Origin: Escherichia coli
GTDB lineage: Bacteria; Pseudomonadota; Gammaproteobacteria; Enterobacterales; Enterobacteriaceae
Strand: one strand, 5' to 3'
Length of the DNA stretch: 64,000 bases
Assembly (NCBI RefSeq): GCF_048403405.1
Contig: NZ_CP183129.1
The translations under genes and the position numbers were made by a program. Under the pieces are notes generated by a model that searched no databases, was not told the DNA's origin, and worked only from the letters and a program-made list of their open reading frames with translations. Positions 19,549-31,649 of this stretch are shown here, in pieces (the stretch's first letter is position 1; every line of letters starts with the position of its first letter).

Positions 19549-20289
19549 GTGAAGTTCAAAGTTATCGCCCTGGCGGCATTAATGGGTATTAGCGGGATGG
19601 CAGCGCAGGCTAACGAATTGCCGGATGGACCGCATATTGTCACCTCCGGTACGGCAAGCGTGGATGCGGTGCCAGACATTGCCACTCTTGCGATTGAAGT
19701 CAACGTGGCCGCGAAGGATGCCGCTACTGCCAAGAAACAGGCGGATGAGCGCGTCGCACAATACATTTCCTTCCTTGAACTCAATCAGATCGCGAAAAAA
19801 GATATCAGCTCAGCGAACTTACGCACCCAGCCAGATTATGATTATCAGGATGGTAAAAGTATCCTGAAAGGCTACCGTGCTGTGAGAACGGTGGAAGTCA
19901 CGCTCCGTCAGTTAGACAAACTGAATTCCTTGCTGGATGGCGCGCTGAAGGCGGGTCTTAACGAAATTCGTTCTGTGTCGCTGGGCGTGGCGCAGCCGGA
20001 TGCCTATAAAGACAAAGCGCGTAAGGCAGCGATTGATAACGCGATTCATCAGGCGCAGGAACTGGCGAACGGCTTTCATCGTAAACTGGGGCCGGTATAT
20101 AGCGTGCGCTACCATGTTTCCAACTATCAGCCCAGCCCAATGGTGCGGATGATGAAAGCCGATGCCGCGCCGGTGTCCGCCCAGGAAACTTACGAGCAGG
20201 CCGCTATTCAGTTTGATGATCAGGTCGATGTGGTCTTCCAGTTAGAACCTGTGGATCAACAACCCGCTAAAACACCTGCAGCACAATAA
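19549..20289 (+). CDS. yggE: periplasmic DUF541/SIMPL-family protein, 246 aa
   Basis: 246 aa, GTG start, signal peptide MKFKVIALAALMGISGMAAQA; position matches yggE. Confidence 0.85.
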   Translation: MKFKVIALAALMGISGMAAQANELPDGPHIVTSGTASVDAVPDIATLAIEVNVAAKDAATAKKQADERVAQYISFLELNQIAKKDISSANLRTQPDYDYQDGKSILKGYRAVRTVEVTLRQLDKLNSLLDGALKAGLNEIRSVSLGVAQPDAYKDKARKAAIDNAIHQAQELANGFHRKLGPVYSVRYHVSNYQPSPMVRMMKADAAPVSAQETYEQAAIQFDDQVDVVFQLEPVDQQPAKTPAAQ

Positions 20290-20456
20290 TATTTATAGCC
20301 CGACGTATTCGTCGGGCTAATGCCTTTACCCGATATTGCCTCCTTTTTCTGTAATTTTCTGTAAAACCATGACGTAATCACCTATCTTTGCTCGCGGTTT
20401 CATCAAGGATAGGCTGACTGAAACGGTTAAGCGGACAAGGATGCGGGGGAGCGGGG

Positions 20457-21353
20457 ATGGACATTTTTATTTCGAAAAAGATGCGCAATTTCATTTTATT
20501 AGCGCAAACCAATAATATTGCCCGGGCGGCAGAAAAAATCCATATGACGGCTTCGCCATTTGGTAAAAGCATTGCCGCGCTGGAAGAACAAATTGGCTAT
20601 ACGCTATTTACCCGCAAAGATAATAATATCAGCCTCAATAAAGCCGGACAGGAACTGTATCAAAAACTGTTCCCGGTTTATCAACGACTTTCTGCGATTG
20701 ATAATGAAATCCATAACTCAGGGCGTCGTTCACGAGAAATTGTGATTGGCATAGATAATACTTATCCGACAATTATTTTTGATCAGTTGATTAGTCTCGG
20801 AGATAAGTATGAAGGCGTGACCGCCCAGCCAGTTGAGTTCAGCGAAAACGGCGTTATCGATAATCTTTTTGACCGTCAGTTAGATTTTATTATCTCCCCA
20901 CAGCATGTATCTGCACGAGTTCAGGAACTGGAAAACCTGACTATCAGTGAACTACCACCGCTGCGATTGGGCTTTCTCGTTTCTCGCCGTTATGAAGAGC
21001 GACAAGAGCAAGAGCTGCTTCAGGAGCTACCCTGGCTGCAAATGCGCTTTCAGAACCGGGCCAACTTCGAAGCAATGATTGATGCGAATATGCGACCTTG
21101 TGGGATCAATCCCACCATTATTTATCGTCCCTACAGTTTTATGGCCAAAATCAGCGCCGTGGAGCGCGGACATTTTCTGACGGTGATCCCGCATTTTGCC
21201 TGGCGACTGGTGAATCCGGCAACGCTGAAATATTTTGATGCGCCGCACAGGCCGATGTATATGCAGGAATATCTTTATTCAATCAGAAATCATCGTTATA
21301 CCGCCACGATGCTTCAGCATATTGCTGAAGATCGTGACGGGACGAGTCATTAA
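20457..21353 (+). CDS. ygfI: LysR-family transcriptional regulator, 298 aa
   Basis: 298 aa; N-terminal HTH (IARAAEKIHMTASPFGKSIAALEEQIG); convergent with scpC, 4-bp overlap. Confidence 0.8.
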   Translation: MDIFISKKMRNFILLAQTNNIARAAEKIHMTASPFGKSIAALEEQIGYTLFTRKDNNISLNKAGQELYQKLFPVYQRLSAIDNEIHNSGRRSREIVIGIDNTYPTIIFDQLISLGDKYEGVTAQPVEFSENGVIDNLFDRQLDFIISPQHVSARVQELENLTISELPPLRLGFLVSRRYEERQEQELLQELPWLQMRFQNRANFEAMIDANMRPCGINPTIIYRPYSFMAKISAVERGHFLTVIPHFAWRLVNPATLKYFDAPHRPMYMQEYLYSIRNHRYTATMLQHIAEDRDGTSH

Positions 21354-22828
21354 CCCAGCATCGAGCCGGTTGCAATTAAATTACGGTGTAAATCGAAGAC
21401 GTGGCTAAGATCGTGGTGAATATGTCCGCCGGGCGCATTTTCCAGATAGCGATGCAGATAATCCCGATACATAGGATGTGCACAATTATCAATGATAGTG
21501 CGGGCGCGTTGAAGCGGGGAAAGACCACGCAGATCGGCGATGCCTTGTTCGGTGATGATCACTTTGACGCTGTGTTCGCTGTGATCAACATGGCTGCACA
21601 TTGGCACGACGGTTGAGATCTTGCCTTCTTTAGCAATCGACGGGGCCATAAAGATCGACAGATACGCGTTGCGTTCAAAATCACCGCTGCCACCGATGCC
21701 GTTCATCAGATCGACCCCGGCTACGTGCGTTGAGTTGGCATGCCCGTAAATATCAAACTCCAGGCCGACGTTCAGAGCGATGACGCCCAGACGACGGATG
21801 ATTTCCGGGTTATTGGAAATTTCCTGCGGACGCAACACAATGCGGCTGGCAAAGTAATCCATATTGTCGTAAATCTTGCGCAGGGAATCGGCCGAGATAG
21901 TCAGGCTGGAGGCGCTGGCCCCGCTGATTTTGCCGGTTTCCAGTAAATGCACCACCGATTCCTGTAGCACTTCCGAATACATCATAAACGGAGGAATTTC
22001 CGGGTTTTCCCCTAGTCGCGCCATGACTGCATTATTGATGTTGCCTACGCCACTTTGCAGCGGCAGAAATTCCGGCGGAATACGCCCATGCGCCATTTCC
22101 TGCAACAAGAACGTGACCACGTTATCGGCAATCTGCTGGCACATGGGATTTTGCTTATCCAGCATATTACCGGCGTCAGGCAAGTTGGTTTCCACGACGG
22201 CGACAATCTTTTTCGGATCGATTTGCACATAGCGGGTACCGACGCGATCCATTGCATGGAAGATCGACACGCTATTGCGCCGCGGTGGCGCGCCAGGAAT
22301 CACAATATCTGCCAGTTCTGCAACGCGCGGATCGTGATAGTGATTAAGTTCAATGATCACTTTCTTCGCTCGCAGCAGCCAGGTCGGCGCATTACCGATC
22401 CCGCTGGTTAACCAGACTCGACCATCCGGTGCCAGTGCCGATGCTTCGATGACGGCAACATCAATGTCGCCGAAGAAACCGTAATTGACCATTTGCGCCA
22501 CTTCGCTCAAATGCAGGTCAACGAAACTCACCGCGCCCTGATTGATCTTTTTACGTAAACCGGACGATGTTTGATATGGCGCACGCCAGGAAACAGCATC
22601 GGCGTCAGAAAGTACATCGTCAGCGGCGGCGCTGATTGACGCCCCCGTCAGCAGGCGAATTTGATACGGCTTTTTGGCCTCATGCTGTTCGTTAGCTCTG
22701 CGGGCAATCGCGGTGGGTAAGGCTTTCGGCGAACCCGCTGGGGTAAAGCCGCTAAATGCCACCATGTCGTTATGCTGGATAATTTCTGCCGCTTCATCGG
22801 CGGTCATCCTTGTCCACTGAGTTTCCAT
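21350..22828 (-). CDS. scpC: propionyl-CoA:succinate CoA-transferase, 492 aa
   Basis: 492 aa METQWTRMTADEAAEIIQHNDMVAFSGF...; acetyl-CoA hydrolase/transferase family; last gene of sbm operon. Confidence 0.9.
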   Translation of the reverse strand: METQWTRMTADEAAEIIQHNDMVAFSGFTPAGSPKALPTAIARRANEQHEAKKPYQIRLLTGASISAAADDVLSDADAVSWRAPYQTSSGLRKKINQGAVSFVDLHLSEVAQMVNYGFFGDIDVAVIEASALAPDGRVWLTSGIGNAPTWLLRAKKVIIELNHYHDPRVAELADIVIPGAPPRRNSVSIFHAMDRVGTRYVQIDPKKIVAVVETNLPDAGNMLDKQNPMCQQIADNVVTFLLQEMAHGRIPPEFLPLQSGVGNINNAVMARLGENPEIPPFMMYSEVLQESVVHLLETGKISGASASSLTISADSLRKIYDNMDYFASRIVLRPQEISNNPEIIRRLGVIALNVGLEFDIYGHANSTHVAGVDLMNGIGGSGDFERNAYLSIFMAPSIAKEGKISTVVPMCSHVDHSEHSVKVIITEQGIADLRGLSPLQRARTIIDNCAHPMYRDYLHRYLENAPGGHIHHDLSHVFDLHRNLIATGSMLG

Positions 22829-22851
22829 TTTAACTCCTTCGTTCGCAGGGA

Positions 22852-23637
22852 TTAATGACCAACGAAATTAGGTTTACGTTTTTCGAGGAAAGCGTTCATC
22901 CCTTCCTGGTAATCTTCGCTGTCATAAACCGCGCGGCGCATCCCCTGAATACGTTCAAATTCATCGGAGTTCATGGTGTGTGCTTCGCCCAGTACACGCA
23001 GCTCTTCTTTGATAACGGCAATGGCTAACGGCGCTTTCTCAGAGATGTGGTGCGCCATTTGTAAGGTGAAATCTTCCAGTTCTTCCACTTCCACAACATG
23101 GTTGAGGATGCCGACAGCCAGCGCGCGCTGGGCGGTGATTGGCGAAGCGGTAAAAATCAGCTCTTTGACAATGTGGAAGCCCGCGTCGCGGGTCAGGTTG
23201 TGAATGCCGACCAGGTTATACGGGACACCGAGGTTTACAGGTGTCATTGAGAAGGTTGAGGTACTGGCGGCGATAATCAGATCGGAACTCATGATCATTT
23301 CAAATGCGCCACCCCAAACACTACCTTCCACCATCGAAATGATCGGTTTCGGGAATTTTTGGATCATGCGGGTGATTTGACGCAATGGATCATCATAGGA
23401 GAGCGGATCGCGACCGCCAGACGGCAGTTCGTGAATATCGTGACCTGCGGAGAAGACTTTGGATCCACTCGGCGCGCGCAAAATGATACAGCGAATTTCC
23501 GGCCGGTTGAGATCGCTTAACGCCTGCATAAGATCATCAATAAAGACTTTACTTAAGGCATTAAGTTTTCGGCCATAGTTAAACTCAATGACCGCCACTT
23601 TGTTGATAGTGACAACGTTCACATACTGATAAGACAT
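22852..23637 (-). CDS. scpB: methylmalonyl-CoA decarboxylase (crotonase fold), 261 aa
   Basis: Internal ATG gives MSYQYVNVVTINKVAVIEFNYGRKLNAL... 261 aa; ORF-track 275 aa is over-extended. Confidence 0.9.
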   Translation of the reverse strand: MSYQYVNVVTINKVAVIEFNYGRKLNALSKVFIDDLMQALSDLNRPEIRCIILRAPSGSKVFSAGHDIHELPSGGRDPLSYDDPLRQITRMIQKFPKPIISMVEGSVWGGAFEMIMSSDLIIAASTSTFSMTPVNLGVPYNLVGIHNLTRDAGFHIVKELIFTASPITAQRALAVGILNHVVEVEELEDFTLQMAHHISEKAPLAIAVIKEELRVLGEAHTMNSDEFERIQGMRRAVYDSEDYQEGMNAFLEKRKPNFVGH

Positions 23638-23647
23638 AAAAATTCCT

Positions 23648-24643
23648 TTAATCAAAATATTGCGTCTGGATAAATTCACTGAGCTGCCGCAGGCCGGTGC
23701 GCGGTGAGAGCGTATTGTTTTTGACCGCTAAAAGCGTCTGGCGGTAATAGCGATCGAAATCTTCATTCGCGAACAGGTGATTCAGTACTTCTTCTTCGGT
23801 TTGTTTACGCAGCCATTCCACCGATTGTTGTTGCCGCACTTGTTGTAATCGACCACTGGCAGTTAGCGCGGTTTTGAAGTCGATGATGGCGTGCCAGATC
23901 TCATCGATTCCACGTTTTTCCAGTGCGCTACAAGTCAGAACCCGTGGCTGCCATTCGTCGTATTTACGTCGCAGAATATGCAGAGCACTCTCGTACATAT
24001 GCCGGGCAATGGCGACATTGGTATGGTTATCGCCATCGTCTTTGTTGATAACGATCAGATCTGCCACTTCCATCAGCCCCTTTTTAATGCCCTGCAGATC
24101 ATCGCCGCCACCGGCAATTTGCAACGAGATAAAACAGTCCACCATGCGGGCGACTTCCGTTTCTGACTGCCCGACGCCAACCGTTTCGACAATCACTACG
24201 TCATAACCCGCCGCTTCGCATAACAGCATTAATTCCCGCGCTCGCTGACTGGCACCGCCCAGATGGCCGGAGGAGGGTACCGGGCGAATAAACGCCGCCT
24301 CGGCACGCGCAAGGTCATTCATGCGGGTTTTATCCCCGAGAATGCTACCGCCAGTGACCGGGCTGCTGGGATCGACCGCAATAACCGCAACCTTTAATCC
24401 CTCACGAATCAACAACATGCCAAAGGCTTCAAGAAAGGTACTTTTCCCCGCGCCGGGTGTGCCGGTAACGCCCAGTCGCAGGGCGTTACCACAGAACGGC
24501 ATAATGGCGTCAAGCAGCTGAGTACTTAGCGCCTGATGACGCGGGTGACGGCTTTCCACCAACGTCATGGCCTGGGCAAGCGTGGCACGCTCACCCTTAC
24601 GTAAGCGGCGAATACTTTCTGCCAGCGTGGCTTCATTAATCAT
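23648..24643 (-). CDS. argK: MeaB-type GTPase chaperone of methylmalonyl-CoA mutase, 331 aa
   Basis: 331 aa; P-loop GTPGAGKST; 8-bp overlap with scpA. Confidence 0.9.
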
Positions 24644-26780
24644 GATGCTGGCTTATCAGATTCAGTGCGTCGCGCACGCTGTCGAGCATAGGTGTACCTG
24701 GACCATAAATCGCCGCCACGCCGCGCTCTTGCAGGAAGGCGTAATCCTGCGGCGGAATGACGCCACCGGCGACTACGCAGATATCTTCGCGTCCCCATTT
24801 TTTCAGCGCTTCGACCAGTTCCGGGATCAGCGTTTTATGACCGGCAGCCAGTGAGGATGCGCCCACTACGTGAACGTCATTTTCTACTGCCAGGCGGGCG
24901 ATCTCTTCAGGTGTAGAGAACATCGGGCTTAAATCTACGTCGAAACCGAGGTCGGAATAGGCGCTGGCGATCACTTTCGCGCCGCGATCGTGCCCATCCT
25001 GACCCATTTTAGCGATCAGAATGCGCGGGCGACGACCATTGTCGGCAAGGAACAGCTCCGTTTGCGCAACAATGGCATCGAACTCGGAGGCCGATTTCTC
25101 AGACTGATGATAGCTTTGCGCAATCACGCCGGTAACACACTGGCTTGGCACCAGATAACGGTCGAAAGCGGCTTCCAGCGCATCGGAAATTTCACCCAGG
25201 GTGGCGCGAACGCGAGCGGCATTAACAGCGGCAGCCAGCAGGTTTTCGTTATGCTGTGCGGCGTGAGTCAGGGCGTTCAACGCGGCGGTTACGGCGGCAT
25301 CATCACGGGTGGCGCGAATGCGTTCCAGCGAAGCAATTTGCTCGTTACGCACCATCACGTTGTCGATCTCAAGGACGTCGGTTTCGTCTTCGTGATCCAG
25401 TTTGTACTTGTTGACACCAACGATGACACGCTTGCCCTGGTCGATCAGCGACTGTTCGCGCGCTGAGGCCTCTTCGATCATTCGTTTTGGCAGACCTGCT
25501 TCGATCGCTTTCGCCATACCACCGGCTTCGTCGATCTGTTGGATAATAGCTCTGGCTTGTTTGACGATTTGATCGGTCAGCGACTCAACGTAATAGGATC
25601 CGGCCAGTGGATCGACGGTGCGGCAGAGTTCTGATTCTTCCTGAATGATGATCTGGGTATTGCGGGCAATGCGTGCTGAGAAATCGGTAGGCAAACCAAG
25701 CGCTTCGTCAAAGGCGTTGGTATGCAGTGACTGAGTACCGCCCAGCGTTGCAGCCAGTGCTTCAATGGTGGTGCGGATAACGTTGTTATACGGATCCTGT
25801 TCAGTCAGGCTCCAGCCTGAGGTCTGGCAGTGGGTACGCAGCGCCAGTGATTTCGGATCCTGTGCGCCAAATCCACTGACCGCTTCGCTCCATAAATAAC
25901 GTGCCGCACGCAACATGGCGACGTTCATAAACAGATCCATGCCAATGCCGAAGAAGAACGACAGGCGAGGAGCGAAGTCATCAATTTTCAGCCCGGCGGA
26001 GATTGCTGCTTTGATGTACTCAATCCCATCAGCGAGCGTAAATGCTACCTGCTGCACGCAGTTGGCACCCGCTTCACCCATATGGTAACCGCTGATACTG
26101 ATGGTATTAAATCGCGGCATGTTGCCGGAACACCAGGCGATGATGTCTGCGATAATACGCATTGACGGTTTTGGCGGGTAAATATAGGTGTTGCGGCAAA
26201 GATACTCTTTGAGGATATCGTTTTGAATAGTGCCGGTCAGTTTATCGGGTGTAACACCTTGCTCTTCTGCGGCGACAATATAAAACGCCAGTACTGGTAG
26301 TACTGCGCCATTCATGGTCATCGAAACCGACATTTTATCCAGCGGGATCTGGTCGAACAGGACTTTCATATCTTCCACGGTGTCGATAGCAACGCCCGCT
26401 TTGCCGACGTCGCCCGCCACGCGCGGGTTATCGGAGTCGTAGCCTCGGTGGGTGGCAAGGTCAAACGCAACGGAAAGACCTTTTTGCCCGGCGGCCAGGT
26501 TACGGCGATAAAAAGCGTTGGACTCTTTTGCTGTTGAAAAACCAGCATACTGACGGATGGTCCACGGTTGGGCGGTATACATAGTGGCACGCGGGCCACG
26601 AACGTAGGGGGGCAAACCAGGAAGGGTACCTGTCACCTCCAGATTATCGAGATCGGCTTCGGTATACAGCGGCTTGATGGCGATCCCTTCCGCGGTTTGC
26701 TGAACCAGCGAGTCGACAGTTTTCTCCCGACGGCTCAATTCCTTGTTGGCAAGCTGTTGCCACTCCTGCACGTTAGACAT
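24636..26780 (-). CDS. scpA: methylmalonyl-CoA mutase (B12-dependent), 714 aa
   Basis: [26 protein letters not shown]... 714 aa; ORF-track starts 7 codons upstream. Confidence 0.93.
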
Positions 26781-26945
26781 TATTTGCTCCGTAAAACGCA
26801 ATCAAAATGAGGGTATTTGCGCTTACGGTGAGCTTTTTACGTGGGTTTGTCGCCAGCAAAAAAAATGCATTCAGACGTCGTTTTTTGCCGCCTGAGATTT
26901 GTCTATTTTGTGATGTGATTCAAGGAATACAAAAAGACGTGCGGA

Positions 26946-26974
26946 TAATGCCTGATATGTGCTATCAGGCATTA
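26946..26974. terminator. palindromic hairpin downstream of argP
   Basis: TAATGCCTGATA-tgtgc-TATCAGGCATTA perfect 12-bp inverted repeat just 3' of argP stop. Confidence 0.45.
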
Positions 26975-26983
26975 TTTGATGGA

Positions 26984-27877
26984 TTAATCCTGACGAAGGA
27001 CTTTGTGACCATAATCGAGTAACGCATCAGTGACTTTACGCATCATGCGGCTTTCAGGAGCAAAGCGGTGCCAGTAGAGCATCCGTCGTTGAAATAGCCC
27101 AGGCGTTAAGTCAATCAGTTCACCGCTGGCCAGCTCTTTCTCGATTTGCAGGTGCGGGATCATACAGCAGGTGGTGCCCTGGCGAGCAAGTTGCACGAAC
27201 GCTTCTGAAGAATTAACGATATGGCAGGGTACGCTGCCAGGAGGCAGATCGAAGTTTTGCTGCAAAAAGGCCTGGTGCATATCGTCAAGATGGTCAAAGG
27301 CGACCACTGGCGCTTTCAATAATGCCGAACGCGTTACGCCGTTAGGGAAATATTTTTCGGCAAACGGTTTTGAGCTGACGAACAGATAGTCGAGCGCACC
27401 AAGTTTATCGACAAGACAACTCGGCAGTGCCTGATGTTGAATACTCACCGCGCCGACCACTTCGCCGCGGCGCAGACGTTCCTGAGTGCGGGTTTCATCT
27501 TCTACCTGCAAGTTGAGGCGGATAGGCGAATCAGCCAACACAGGAGCCAGTGCCGGAAGCAACCACGTCGCCAGACTGTCGGCGTTGACCGCCAGTGAAA
27601 GCAGCAGCGGAGTCGAACCGGTTTGTTCATCGCCCAGCCACTCTTCTTCCAGCAACTCCACCTGGCGCAGCAGTGCCAGCAGTTTTTGCCCTTGTTCCGT
27701 CGGGCGCGGCGGTACGGTACGCACCAACAGCGGCTGCCCGAACATATTTTCCAGTTGCTTAATGCGCTGTGAGACGGCTGATTGTGTAATGCACAGCTTT
27801 TGTGCCGCGCGCTCAAATCCTCGTTCACGTATCACCGCATCCAGTGCCTGTAATGTTCTGTAGTCCGGGCGTTTCAT
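26984..27877 (-). CDS. argP: LysR-family regulator ArgP/IciA, 297 aa
   Basis: Internal ATG gives [43 protein letters not shown]...; 297 aa. Confidence 0.9.
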
Positions 27878-28304
27878 TGCTGTTGTCTGCTCCTGGTAAA
27901 TGCTTTTTCCTGCACTATGACACAATTTTGTGTCAGGTTGCATATACCGAAGCCGTCGGCGGGTAACATTTGTATTCGTGGTTAAACGCGCAGCTTAAAA
28001 GATCAGGGATTTGCGCTAATGCATTTCGCTCAGCGAGTTCGCGCCCTGGTTGTGTTGAATGGCGTGGCGTTATTGCCCCAATTTGCCTGTAAACAGGGGC
28101 TTGCGAACGGTGAACTGGTGCGCCTGTTTGCACCGTGGAGCGGCATACCCAGATTGTTGTATGCCTTATTTGCGGGGCGAAAGGGGATGCCTGCCATTGC
28201 GCGATATTTTATGGATGAGTTAACCACGCGGCTTGCCAACGGGGTCTGAATCGCTTTTTTTGTATATAATGCGTGTGAAATTTCATACCATAGGCGAAAC
28301 GATC

Positions 28305-28964
28305 ATGACGCAGGATGAATTGAAAAAAGCAGTAGGATGGGCGGCACTTCAGTATGTTCAGCCCGGCACCATTGTTGGTGTAGGTACAGGTTCCACCGCC
28401 GCACACTTTATTGACGCGCTCGGTACAATGAAAGGCCAGATTGAAGGGGCCGTTTCCAGTTCAGATGCTTCCACTGAAAAACTGAAAAGCCTCGGCATTC
28501 ACGTTTTTGATCTCAACGAAGTCGACAGCCTTGGCATCTACGTTGATGGCGCAGATGAAATCAACGGCCACATGCAAATGATCAAAGGCGGCGGCGCGGC
28601 GCTGACCCGTGAAAAAATCATTGCTTCGGTTGCAGAAAAATTTATCTGTATTGCAGACGCTTCCAAGCAGGTTGATATTCTGGGTAAATTCCCGCTGCCA
28701 GTAGAAGTTATCCCGATGGCACGTAGTGCAGTGGCGCGCCAGCTGGTGAAACTGGGCGGTCGTCCGGAATACCGTCAGGGCGTGGTGACCGATAATGGCA
28801 ACGTGATCCTCGACGTCCACGGCATGGAAATCCTTGACCCGATAGCGATGGAAAACGCCATAAATGCGATTCCTGGCGTGGTGACTGTTGGCTTGTTTGC
28901 TAACCGTGGCGCGGACGTTGCGCTGATTGGCACACCTGACGGTGTCAAAACCATTGTGAAATGA
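28305..28964 (+). CDS. rpiA: ribose-5-phosphate isomerase A, 219 aa
   Basis: [39 protein letters not shown]...; ORF-track start 28233 (TTG) over-extended. Confidence 0.95.
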
Positions 28965-30639: not shown

Positions 30640-30785
30640 CGGTAAAGCCCTCACCGAAGCGAGGGCTTAAAGGAGAAGGGTTATGATGCGACTTGTCATC
30701 ATACTGATTGTACTGTTACTCATAAGTTTGCCAGCTTATTAACAGTCAGTCACAGGGGAGGAGTAATCCTCCCTTACCCTTACTC
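30640..30785 (-). ncRNA. sibC: SibC-like antisense sRNA (antitoxin to ibsC); boundaries approximate
   Basis: Minus-strand promoter-like TTGACA (plus 30813-30818), 17-bp spacer, TAATTT (plus 30789-30794); hairpin GCCCTC-accgaagc-GAGGGC at 30647-30666 as candidate 3' end; fully antisense to ibsC. Confidence 0.45.
30683..30742 (+). CDS. ibsC: type I toxin IbsC-like hydrophobic peptide (19 aa)
   Basis: ATG ATG CGA CTT ... TAT TAA encodes MMRLVIILIVLLLISLPAY; SD AGGAGAAGGG upstream; lies in the serA-ygfA spacer where I recall the ibsC/sibC locus. Confidence 0.6.
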   Translation: MMRLVIILIVLLLISLPAY

Positions 30786-30842
30786 ACTAAATTAGGTTAA
30801 AGAATCAACGATGTCAATCAGGGCGATGCAGGTGTGTCGCCC

Positions 30843-31465: not shown

Positions 31466-31649
31466 GGAATCTCCGAGATGCCGCCGCAGGCTGTAACCCT
31501 TGAACCCTTGGTTCAAGGTGAATGTGTCGTCGCAGTTTTAAGGCTTCTCGGACGGACCGAGCATGCTCACCAACCGCGGAGCGCCACATTCTTGTGGTAT
31601 GAAATATCGGCTCAGGGGACTGGCCCGCTTGCGAACATCTCAGAGAAAT
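31466..31649 (-). ncRNA. ssrS: 6S RNA
   Basis: Reverse complement of 31466-31649 reads AUUUCUCUGAGAUGUUCGCAAGCGGGCCAGUCCCCUGAGCCGAUAUUUCAUACCACAAGAAUGUGGCGCUCCGCGGUUGGUGAGCAUGCUCGG...GGAGAUUCC, matching E. coli 6S RNA from memory; sits between zapA and ygfA. Confidence 0.92.

Follow-up and report, generated by a model that had tools for sequence, protein, structure and literature searches.

Does the locus between argP and srsR (ygfI) of this Escherichia coli chromosome hold a functional operon, and what connects that operon with the LysR-family regulator gene that converges on its 3' end? The window, i.e. the whole stretch of 64,000 nucleotides that was analyzed, was confirmed to contain an intact chromosomal E. 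coli operon in this interval, composed of scpA (sbm), meaB (argK/ygfD), scpB (ygfG) and scpC (ygfH). The gene coordinates were obtained from the listing of open reading frames and from a genome of 100% identity with RefSeq annotation. The operon is encoded on the minus strand; no strand had been given in the initial annotation. The limits proposed for the sbm operon, 21350-26780, correspond exactly to the scpC stop and the scpA start.

26780..24636, minus strand: scpA (sbm), cobalamin-dependent methylmalonyl-CoA mutase, 714 aa (NF006944 equivalog, 1248 bits versus a cut-off of 876)
24643..23648, minus strand: meaB (argK/ygfD), G-protein chaperone of the mutase, 331 aa (NF006958, 494 bits versus a cut-off of 329)
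23637..22852, minus strand: scpB (ygfG), methylmalonyl-CoA decarboxylase with crotonase fold, 261 aa (NF008506, 487 bits versus a cut-off of 257)
22828..21350, minus strand: scpC (ygfH), propionyl-CoA:succinate CoA-transferase, 492 aa (TIGR03458 YgfH_subfam, 754 bits versus a cut-off of 659)
20457..21353, plus strand: srsR (ygfI, dhfA), LysR-family regulator, 298 aa (NF047842 SrsR equivalog, 635 bits versus a cut-off of 425)
24636..24643, minus strand: scpA/meaB overlap ATGATTAA by direct reading, with the meaB start codon within the scpA 3' end; identical layout in K-12
21350..21353, unstranded: TTAA overlap with both TAA stops of scpC and srsR, read from the sequence

The four genes are co-directional and follow the order mutase, MeaB GTPase, decarboxylase and CoA-transferase, with order and coordinates matching K-12. 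Neither frameshifts nor internal stops were found in any of them, and their lengths, start codons and stop codons are those of K-12 MG1655; the proposal that scpA, argK, scpB and scpC are intact thus withstood the search for premature stops and frameshifts, and the gene identities were right. Readings of the junctions revealed an 8-bp overlap between scpA and meaB, a meaB-scpB spacer of 10 nt that contains AGGA and a scpB-scpC spacer of 23 nt that contains GAAGGAG. The tight coupling described in the initial annotation is borne out by these distances, but its 8-bp element is an overlap and not a gap. Translational coupling of scpA and meaB would be expected from this arrangement. The scp operon itself is textbook E. 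coli biology that has been well described before. The non-routine point is that the LysR gene ygfI/srsR co-travels with the scp operon through many bacterial genera, as judged from sequence comparison. Taken jointly, the locus is very probably best explained by an intact scp operon, a pathway of conditional function, a putative inherited unit with srsR and a predicted transcript end at a hairpin.

All five proteins, the four enzymes and SrsR, scored above the curated cut-off of their own NCBIfam equivalog or subfamily model, and the cofactor and nucleotide motifs of the scp proteins were found. ScpA contains the Pfam domains MM_CoA_mutase and B12-binding, its DxHxxG motif reads DGHDRG (B12 His-on) from residue 595, and among solved structures the human and Propionibacterium mutases come closest; ScpA differs from the K-12 protein in 5 amino acids (dN/dS 0.045). 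MeaB displays the P-loop GTPGAGKS from residue 61 and NKDD from residue 200, and was matched over its full length to PDB 2P67 (724 bits; dN/dS versus K-12 0.037). ScpB shows no differences to the K-12 protein and matches PDB 1EF8 over residues 1-261 (575 bits), while ScpC differs in 2 amino acids (dN/dS 0.024) and its structure-solved homologs are class I CoA-transferases. The mutase, decarboxylase and CoA-transferase activities are predicted from the 99-100% identity to the characterized K-12 proteins and from PDB 2P67 and 1EF8. The comparison with the sbm operon (b2917-b2920) and srsR/ygfI (b2921) of K-12 MG1655 showed that gene order, gene lengths, overlaps, spacers and the argP/yggE flanks are shared. 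Only allelic differences separate the two operons (98 nucleotide and 10 amino-acid substitutions in the four genes), and the argP-scpA spacer measures 203 nt in both, with 5 differences.

In K-12, ScpA converts succinyl-CoA to (R)-methylmalonyl-CoA with adenosylcobalamin, and the GTPase MeaB loads and protects ScpA. ScpB decarboxylates methylmalonyl-CoA to propionyl-CoA, and ScpC moves the CoA to succinate, which frees propionate and regenerates succinyl-CoA. The B12 mutase and the MeaB/MMAA chaperone are homologous to those of the propionibacterial Wood-Werkman-type methylmalonyl-CoA pathway and of human MMUT-MMAA, a comparison that names an alpha/beta heterodimer whereas ScpA is one fused polypeptide. 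Unlike in the Wood-Werkman type, decarboxylation is performed by the biotin-independent crotonase-fold ScpB and neither an epimerase nor a transcarboxylase is encoded. The operation of the scp pathway is conditional in three ways, namely B12 supply, expression and stereochemistry. E. coli has to import B12 or cobinamide, expression of the operon in the laboratory is minimal, and the stereochemical hand-over from ScpA to ScpB may need an epimerase, which E. coli does not have. That B12 makes the function conditional, as initially annotated, agrees with the B12 dependence of Sbm and with the need for added cyanocobalamin (at least 0.2 uM) in E. coli, where the operon was found to be hardly expressed (PMC3850637). 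The operon was also called complete, which holds true for its four genes; the completeness of the pathway is disputed, as methylmalonyl-CoA epimerase was reported to be missing and its addition to be required (PMC5512728).

The entry into the operon was searched for signals that could account for its expression. A promoter scan of the 203 nt between argP and scpA identified no sigma-70-like promoter on the operon strand. A search of 20200-28200 against Rfam gave neither a riboswitch nor any other family at E <= 1, which includes the absence of a cobalamin riboswitch from the leader. K-12 shows Rho-dependent termination at two points, 47 nt inside scpA and at the 5' end of scpB (PMC7815308 Supplementary file 2); these Rho data cover growth in LB only.

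26733, minus strand: peak of the Rho termination region 47 nt inside scpA (K-12 position 3,060,897, mapped from the scpA start)
23598, minus strand: second Rho termination region, at the scpB 5' end (K-12 position 3,064,032, mapped in this analysis)
26945..26975, minus strand: REP-like hairpin after argP with a 13-bp stem, ATAATGCCTGATA-GCACA-TATCAGGCATTAT, read from the sequence

At the scpA region, reads dropped from 159 upstream to 15 downstream without BCM, and amounted to 543 upstream and 563 downstream with BCM (Rho score 11.0, p = 3.8e-29); the region at the scpB 5' end had a Rho score of 4.9 (p = 3e-7; both PMC7815308 Supplementary file 2). The Rho data may reflect the termination of argP read-through rather than of a transcript initiated at scpA. 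The REP-like hairpin is likely the end of the argP transcript, and it was missed by the terminator scan because its T run begins 10 nt past the stem.

The distribution of srsR was followed across species. SrsR is composed of the HTH_1 and LysR_substrate domains and shows no differences to the K-12 protein. Wherever the four scp genes and srsR occur at one locus, they make up a five-gene cassette with srsR in convergent orientation (45 of 45 loci: 42 species-level loci and three further SrsR homologs collected from the SrsR side). All 42 species-level loci have kept the order scpA-meaB-scpB-scpC with a convergent srsR, and the four enzyme genes are full length in each of the 41 complete loci of other species. 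The genes that flank the cassette vary, with at least eight contexts; one of these, in an Aeromonas genome, appears to result from transfer. SrsR makes up a narrow orthogroup, as each of its 56 matches is at least 61% identical, and every member examined adjoins the operon. The regulator gene is placed convergently at the operon 3' end and not divergently with a shared regulatory region. Against a link between the two, srsR contains a stop codon in the E. albertii type strain, whose operon is intact. The comparative data nevertheless argue for a functional link between srsR and the scp operon, and the regulator and the four enzyme genes would represent one inherited unit.

Three conserved boxes were identified upstream of scpA.

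26877..26891, minus strand: Box 1 GCGGCAAAAAACGAC, 111 nt upstream of the scpA ATG, conserved at 31 loci
26848..26863, minus strand: Box 2 TTTTTTGCTGGCGACA, 16 nt, 83 nt upstream of the scpA ATG, candidate operator/promoter element
26824..26838, minus strand: Box 3 AAAAAGCTCACCGTA, between Box 2 and the scpA ribosome-binding site, conserved in the alignment

Of the 41 srsR-bearing loci, 37 (Yersinia among them) have Box 2 upstream of scpA with 0-1 mismatch, and Hafnia has it as well; no locus contains a second copy this close to exact (0-1 mismatch). Neither the Sodalis/Acerihabitans group nor the Methylococcales operons without srsR have the box. Box 1 is located exactly 28 nt upstream of Box 2 at every locus that contains it (n = 31; Escherichia, Citrobacter, Klebsiella, Salmonella, Yokenella, Superficieibacter, Kosakonia and RU39B); among the loci compared, it was not found in Yersinia, UBA7338/ESNIH1 and one Escherichia species (L012). 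One base just past Box 3 differs between the window and K-12. Both Box 1 and Box 2 contain TTTTTTGC, whose TTTTGC core is common to the published SrsR box TCAGATTTTGC, and a dyad-like element GCAAAAAA-N16-TTTTTTGC is conserved upstream of scpA. The SrsR box itself could not be detected at up to two mismatches in either upstream region. As in classical systems of a LysR regulator and a divergent catabolic operon, the regulator gene is tightly and persistently linked and a dyad-like element precedes the first enzyme gene; unlike in these systems, srsR is convergent and overlapping at the operon 3' end, 5.4 kb away from the putative operator. SrsR would be the most likely effector-responsive regulator of the scp operon, acting via the candidate Box 1 and Box 2, whose roles in the control of scpA are suggested by conservation. 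The initial annotation had presented ygfI as the convergent LysR regulator of the operon: family and orientation were verified, but regulation of the operon is without support in published K-12 screens. The scp genes are absent from the published K-12 SrsR/YgfI lists obtained by gSELEX (10 loci) and ChIP-exo (2 sites), as well as from the published RNA-seq list of a ygfI deletion in K-12, and SrsR/YgfI was named from such K-12 omics data as a stationary-phase stress regulator or a dihydroxyacetone/formate regulator. It is only tentatively proposed that SrsR is in origin a dedicated effector-responsive scp regulator that acts at Box 1 and Box 2, with the 3'-convergent, hairpin-in-regulator layout as conserved cassette architecture. 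If this is true, the effector would explain the waking of the "sleeping beauty" operon.

The relation between regulator and operon can also be viewed in E. coli genomes without the operon core, which is missing in approximately 21% of complete genomes (5425 genomes with a match minus 4273 that hold at least 80% of the query), mostly in B2-type strains. The operon allele of the window represents a minority lineage; identity to it across the operon reaches 99% or more in 93 of the 5425 genomes. The deletion in the sampled B2-type genomes spans 4,273 bp between two 15-bp repeats.

21489..21503, plus strand: repeat TCAATGATAGTGCGG, 15 bp, in scpC, left deletion end-point
25762..25776, plus strand: repeat TCAATGGTGGTGCGG, 15 bp, in scpA, right deletion end-point, 13 of 15 positions identical to the scpC copy

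The ST131 deletion junction holds the scpA-type repeat copy. The operon-deleted B2-type loci (ST131, O1:K1:H7, O4:H5 and NCTC9022) share with the window the flanks, the srsR position and the last 153 bp of scpC, which the deletion genomes retain together with the hairpin detailed below, whereas scpA and scpC are largely gone and meaB and scpB entirely. They also differ by extra small deletions in the scpA remnant and, in ST131-type genomes, by an srsR pseudogene. Alternatively, srsR might be a mere neighbor that regulates other genes and is co-inherited because the scpC/srsR overlap makes the two inseparable without damage, a serious possibility that still falls short of being probable. It is in line with the published K-12 targets (stationary-phase stress, biofilm, fucAO and dhaKLM), among which the scp genes are missing, and with the usual divergent rather than convergent position of LysR regulators relative to their targets. 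Moreover, srsR is intact after loss of the operon core in O4:H5, O1:K1:H7, NCTC9022 and HH45 (four of the eight sampled genomes), and the deletion end-point leaves the srsR 3' end untouched. Nevertheless, physical inseparability is a weak explanation, because loss of the 4-bp overlap costs few C-terminal residues and because scpC/srsR overlaps of 0-40 bp and gaps of 128-186 nt exist. The constant position of the narrow SrsR orthogroup beside the operon in all those flanking contexts, Aeromonas included, also speaks against a mere neighbor, as do the two stop codons in srsR of all four sampled ST131-type genomes and the pairwise dN/dS of 0.45-0.57 among B2 srsR alleles, a value based on very small counts.

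The same losses could indicate that the scp operon of E. coli is a silent, cryptic relic, expendable and being lost, with neither B12 synthesis nor an epimerase to serve it. Rare IS-mediated lesions in the operon, Rho termination at its entry and the reported incompleteness of the pathway (PMC5512728) would fit this view, but it is improbable. The four genes are intact in the window and in K-12, with dN/dS values of 0.00-0.05 over dS values of 0.03-0.11 between the two, the full-length state of the genes extends to all 41 loci of other species, and the losses in the sampled B2-type genomes trace to a single ancestral deletion between the 15-bp repeats and not to recurrent decay.

The reading of an intact operon in a conserved cassette with srsR leaves the convergent junction to be considered. 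The reported 4-bp overlap of the ygfI and scpC 3' ends was verified as TTAA, and a conserved structure was located next to it.

21299..21342, minus strand: conserved hairpin 8 nt past the scpC stop, within the final ~50 nt of the srsR coding sequence

The 231-nt hairpin region has an MFE z-score of -2.78. In an alignment of 27 species, the hairpin comprises 20 pairs with 89.8% of cells paired, and 8 pairs have changed on both sides. None of 500 shuffles matched this value, although the relatedness of the species means that the shuffle control overstates significance, and slid controls reached 27-54%. The operon strand is favored both by the G.U pairs, of which there are 64 in the scpC sense versus 21 in the srsR sense, and by the stability of the fold, which is higher in the scpC sense for 26 of 27 species. 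The equivalent hairpin of Hafnia is a canonical stem directly followed by U6, and the run reads AUUUUUC or GUUUUUC in most other genera; in E. coli, the U-rich run AUUUCUGAUUG begins ~12 nt past the main stem, and the terminator scan made no call. This structure suggests that the scp transcript ends, or is stabilized, soon after its entry into the srsR 3' end, which would limit sense/antisense overlap and not exploit it. The antisense or occlusion effects that had been attributed to the ygfI-scpC overlap are speculation, and mutual interference by antisense RNA or RNA polymerase collision that renders srsR and operon expression mutually exclusive is very unlikely: although the overlap geometry is conserved and the plus strand past the srsR stop is without terminator-like structure (z-score +0.53, no scan call before 22976), so that srsR transcripts could run antisense into scpC, collisions would be rare because expression of either unit is very weak in K-12 (ygfI base mean 21.6, operon hardly expressed), the K-12 3'-end atlas contains neither transcript 3' ends nor antisense Rho termination regions at scpC/ygfI (PMC7815308), and the hairpin with its scpC-sense preference resembles insulation. 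Stop/stop overlaps are kept passively because any change alters both proteins, and the 4-bp geometry [TC]TA[AG], all four variants of which occurred, was present at 33 of the 42 species-level loci.

The ORF listing placed four consecutive reading frames on the minus strand between 21350 and 26801 and another on the plus strand at 20457-21353. Megablast matched the region 20500-28500 in 5,425 of 5,426 complete E. coli genomes; six genomes, among them the blood isolate GN02461, are 100.0% identical over this region. The RefSeq annotation of GN02461 was transferred to the window to obtain the gene coordinates.

26780..24636, minus strand: scpA (sbm)
24643..23648, minus strand: meaB (argK/ygfD)
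23637..22852, minus strand: scpB (ygfG)
22828..21350, minus strand: scpC (ygfH)
20457..21353, plus strand: srsR (formerly ygfI), LysR-family regulator gene convergent to scpC
27877..26984, minus strand: argP, upstream of scpA

The interval 21350-26780, which the initial annotation had assigned to the operon without stating the strand, is exact, with the scpC stop at one end and the scpA start at the other. Tight coupling of the genes was borne out by the small spacers read from the sequence between meaB and scpB (10 nt, including AGGA) and between scpB and scpC (23 nt, including GAAGGAG), but what had been described as an 8-bp gap is an 8-bp overlap of scpA and meaB (ATGATTAA). The proposed convergent 4-bp overlap of ygfI and scpC was found as a TTAA at 21350-21353 that is common to both TAA stops. 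Gene lengths, overlaps and spacers are identical in the comparison strain K-12 MG1655, from which the four operon genes differ by 98 nucleotides and 10 amino acids (dN/dS 0.00-0.05), and the ScpB, SrsR and ArgP proteins do not differ at all. Comparison with K-12 revealed no internal stops, and all four genes are intact as claimed, free of frameshifts and premature stops. All products scored above the curated cut-off of their own NCBIfam model and contain the expected Pfam domains, and the B12 His-on motif DGHDRG, the MeaB P-loop GTPGAGKS and NKDD were found. MeaB and ScpB match solved E. coli structures over their full length (2P67 and 1EF8, respectively), ScpA matches mutase structures and ScpC matches class I CoA-transferase structures. 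This is an already known, ordinary core E. coli locus, and the initial statement is a routine annotation of it that alters nothing. What is worth carrying forward is the five-gene cassette (the four enzyme genes and convergent srsR), the conserved Box 1/Box 2 upstream of scpA, a hairpin embedded in srsR, an unremarked Rho termination and a B2-wide deletion.

In the encoded pathway, as established for the K-12 enzymes, ScpA converts succinyl-CoA to methylmalonyl-CoA and needs adenosylcobalamin, with MeaB acting as its chaperone; ScpB converts methylmalonyl-CoA to propionyl-CoA and CO2, and ScpC moves the CoA to succinate and releases propionate. The sbm operon is hardly expressed, E. coli does not synthesize B12 and cyanocobalamin at 0.2 uM or more was required for product formation (PMC3850637), which agrees with the earlier description of the pathway as conditional in a host without B12 synthesis. 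The native operon has been described as an incomplete pathway; the ScpA product is the (R)-enantiomer, and propionate was obtained from glucose only after methylmalonyl-CoA epimerase was added (PMC5512728). The operon is complete, but completeness of the pathway is contested. No sigma-70-like promoter was found on the operon strand of the 203-nt argP-scpA spacer, and no B12 riboswitch or other Rfam family was detected around the operon at E <= 1. Across the 64-kb window, only two RNAs exceeded the Rfam gathering score, and the remainder of the window is ordinary core chromosome from speA to xdhD.

30667-30817, minus strand: Sib antitoxin RNA with Ibs toxin ORF (Rfam)
31466-31649, minus strand: 6S RNA, ssrS (Rfam)

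A scan for ScpC in one genome per species yielded 80 loci, around which synteny was analyzed by tblastn. An SrsR orthologue (58-100% identity) lies convergent after scpC in every Enterobacterales locus with a full operon and in one Aeromonas genome. This arrangement was present in 42 loci, 41 of which hold the complete operon with all four enzyme genes at full length. The 4-bp stop/stop overlap recurs in 33 of the 42 loci and was seen in all possible variants (TTAA, TTAG, CTAA and CTAG); the remaining pairs overlap by 6-40 bp or abut, and among the 42 loci a gap exists only in Sodalis (186 nt). The genes that flank the cassette vary between taxa.

Genes flanking the cassette
argP / yggE: Escherichia, Citrobacter, Klebsiella, Salmonella arizonae and diarizonae, Yokenella and others
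alpha-amylase / acpH-queA: Superficieibacter
fructosamine kinase / yniB: Yersinia
Zn-dependent alcohol dehydrogenase / MFS transporter: Acerihabitans
flavin reductase / 3-hydroxyisobutyrate-dehydrogenase-like: Sodalis
FlgT: Aeromonas sp. RU39B
unannotated: Kosakonia

A search that started from SrsR gave a narrow orthogroup of 56 matches, all at least 61% identical. Three of three further SrsR loci (Hafnia paralvei, a record labelled Martelella alba and a metagenome contig) adjoin CoA-transferase, crotonase, MeaB and mutase genes, and one more flanking context comes from Hafnia. Judged from gene order and sequence identity, srsR is part of the inherited unit of the operon and is always co-inherited. 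The synteny analysis also identified the operon in Methylococcales, where srsR is absent. In Aeromonas sp. RU39B (L029), the cassette stands beside an Aeromonas/Vibrio-type flgT, its proteins are 81-92% identical to those of E. coli and it has both Box 1 and Box 2. The whole cassette seems to have been transferred recently from Enterobacteriaceae.

At the convergent junction, folding and alignment identified one prominent structure.

21342-21299, minus strand: long hairpin, starting 8 nt after the scpC stop and within the final ~50 nt of the srsR reading frame

In an alignment of 27 species (A2), 20 pairs of this hairpin are formed in 89.8% of cells and eight pairs are changed on both sides; slid registers of the alignment gave 27-54% pairing. 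None of 500 shuffles reached any of four measures. There are 64 G.U pairs in the scpC sense versus 21 in the srsR sense, and for 26 of 27 species the scpC sense gives the more stable fold. All these figures overstate independence, as the sequences are related by phylogeny. An (A/G)UUUUUC stretch follows ~12 nt past the main stem in most genera (AUUUCUGAUUG in E. coli), and Hafnia has a textbook stem with U6 directly after it. The hairpin is read as a putative 3'-end element of the operon transcript (terminator or exonuclease barrier) embedded in srsR, where it would limit sense/antisense overlap. The initial annotation had raised antisense or occlusion effects between scpC and srsR transcription, which are neither supported nor excluded: the overlap that could allow them is real, but PMC7815308 lists no Term-seq 3' ends or antisense Rho regions at scpC/ygfI in K-12, and both the operon and ygfI are weakly expressed in that strain. 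The terminator scan gave no canonical terminator at the junction: it passed over the E. coli hairpin and called only weak 5-6-bp stems inside srsR. The plus strand after the srsR stop showed no unusual structure (z-score +0.53).

Alignment of the scpA upstream regions, together with a motif scan, revealed conserved non-coding blocks in the argP-scpA spacer.

26891-26877, minus strand: Box 1, GCGGCAAAAAACGAC (alignment, motif scan)
26863-26848, minus strand: Box 2, the 16-mer TTTTTTGCTGGCGACA (alignment, motif scan)
26838-26824, minus strand: Box 3, AAAAAGCTCACCGTA, a third block after Box 2 (alignment)

Box 2 was detected with 0-1 mismatch in 37 of 41 loci and is the sole near-exact (0-1 mismatch) copy in each; its distance upstream of the ATG is 79-122 nt, with the Hafnia copy at -187. 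Box 1 was detected in 31 of the 37 loci with Box 2 and is located exactly 28 nt upstream of Box 2 in each of them; it was not found in Yersinia, UBA7338/ESNIH1 and one Escherichia species locus (L012). Inverted TTTTTTGC half-sites lie inside Box 1 and Box 2. Neither box occurs in the Methylococcales, which lack srsR, or in the Sodalis/Acerihabitans group, whose SrsR is the most divergent. Box 2 is a candidate binding site or promoter element, given that this non-coding 16-mer is perfectly conserved between genera with just 76-77% identity in ScpC. An RNA hairpin or attenuator formed by Box 1/Box 2 was rejected, as the small stems vary by species and are gone in E. albertii. The boxes are conserved in sequence and not in pairing and are therefore treated as a candidate protein-binding or promoter element. 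A sigma-54 promoter reading of CTGGCGACA was rejected, as it lacks a conserved -12 TTGC element. The published SrsR box TCAGATTTTGC has the TTTTGC core alone in common with Box 1/Box 2, and TCGTTTTTTGC, the reverse complement of Box 1, agrees with the SrsR box at 8 of 11 positions. With up to 2 mismatches, the SrsR box gave 31 matches in the window versus 23 expected and none in the scpA and srsR upstream regions. A second exact 15-nt Box 1 is present in Superficieibacter (L023, ~9963) in a queA-like ORF, ~1.6 kb beyond the srsR start, and may be chance or functional. Upstream of srsR (20290-20456), Escherichia has ~25 nt extra (AACGGTTAAGCGGACAAGGATGCGGGGGAGCGGGG) directly before the ATG, judged against Citrobacter, Klebsiella and Salmonella, and a conserved block, TTTTTCTGT(G/A)A...CTGTAAAA, lies farther upstream.

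Two Rho termination regions in the K-12 operon are listed in DirectRNA-seq data obtained with and without bicyclomycin (BCM) (PMC7815308, Supplementary file 2). The first, at 3,060,897(+), lies 47 nt inside scpA (Rho score 11.0, p = 3.8e-29); reads decrease there from 159 upstream to 15 downstream without BCM and amount to 543 upstream and 563 downstream with BCM (PMC7815308). The second, at 3,064,032(+), is located at the scpB 5' end (Rho score 4.9; PMC7815308). Mapped onto the window in this analysis, these positions correspond to ~26733 and ~23598. The terminated RNA may originate at argP or within the spacer. The data suggest that Rho contributes to operon silence, and no mention of Rho termination at the operon entry was found in the sbm literature searched. 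Directly 3' of argP, a REP-like hairpin with a 13-bp stem (26945-26975, minus strand) has its T run 10 nt beyond, which together with the Rho data suggests that argP transcription is not cleanly ended by an intrinsic terminator. On the other side of argP, a 231-nt plus-strand ORF between argP and rpiA (28019-28249) has a hypothetical annotation; other strains have it annotated as a LysR substrate-binding fragment, and K-12 as the pseudogene yqfE. It is the remnant of another LysR gene beside argP.

Several results speak against a link between SrsR and the operon. Published gSELEX of SrsR identified 10 loci, none at scp, published ChIP-exo identified 2 sites, and scp genes are absent from the RNA-seq table of a ygfI deletion. 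All of these experiments were performed without B12 or candidate effectors, with the operon nearly silent. Methylmalonyl, propionate and the neighbouring operon go unmentioned in both SrsR/YgfI regulon papers, and no paper treating ygfI together with methylmalonyl-CoA mutase was found in the literature searched. SrsR provides a concrete regulator candidate for the ~25-year-old puzzle of the silence and inducer of the sbm operon, and the 16-nt conserved site, SrsR and the Rho data offer a cheap hypothesis on how the sleeping beauty mutase is woken.

At least 80% of the operon is held by 4,273 of 5,425 E. coli genomes, and the operon core is missing in ~21% of the complete genomes (1,152/5,425). 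Operon-less genomes sampled include ST131, O1:K1:H7, O4:H5, NCTC9022 and HH45 (deletion loci L002, L004-L006 and L090-L093). The sampled B2-type genomes have one common 4,273-bp deletion, which left 153 bp at the 3' end of scpC and 0.93-1.03 kb at the 5' end of scpA; secondary small deletions shortened the scpA remnant from 1029 to 966 and 927 bp. The deletion end points coincide with two imperfect repeats, 4,273 bp apart, and the window has retained both.

21489-21503: left end-point repeat, 15 bp, TCAATGATAGTGCGG
25762-25776: right end-point repeat, 15 bp, TCAATGGTGGTGCGG

A different, IS1-associated deletion is present in strain MB51. The pathway is thus out of reach for roughly one fifth of sequenced E. 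coli, among them ST131 and further extra-intestinal pathogenic B2 lineages, a point that bears on models of gut propionate and B12 cross-feeding. Two stops (S92* and W193*) interrupt srsR in four of four ST131-type genomes. Co-decay of srsR with the operon was rejected as a finding and is a lead only, as the ST131-type pseudogene counts as one event and srsR is intact in the other four deletion genomes. Pairwise dN/dS of srsR is 0.45-0.57 among B2 alleles versus 0-0.09 elsewhere, with only 2-8 substitutions, and may represent the usual inflation at short divergence. The E. albertii type strain (L011) also carries W193* with its operon intact; this TGG-to-TAG change at srsR codon 193 (21033-21035) occurred there independently of the ST131-type locus (L002).
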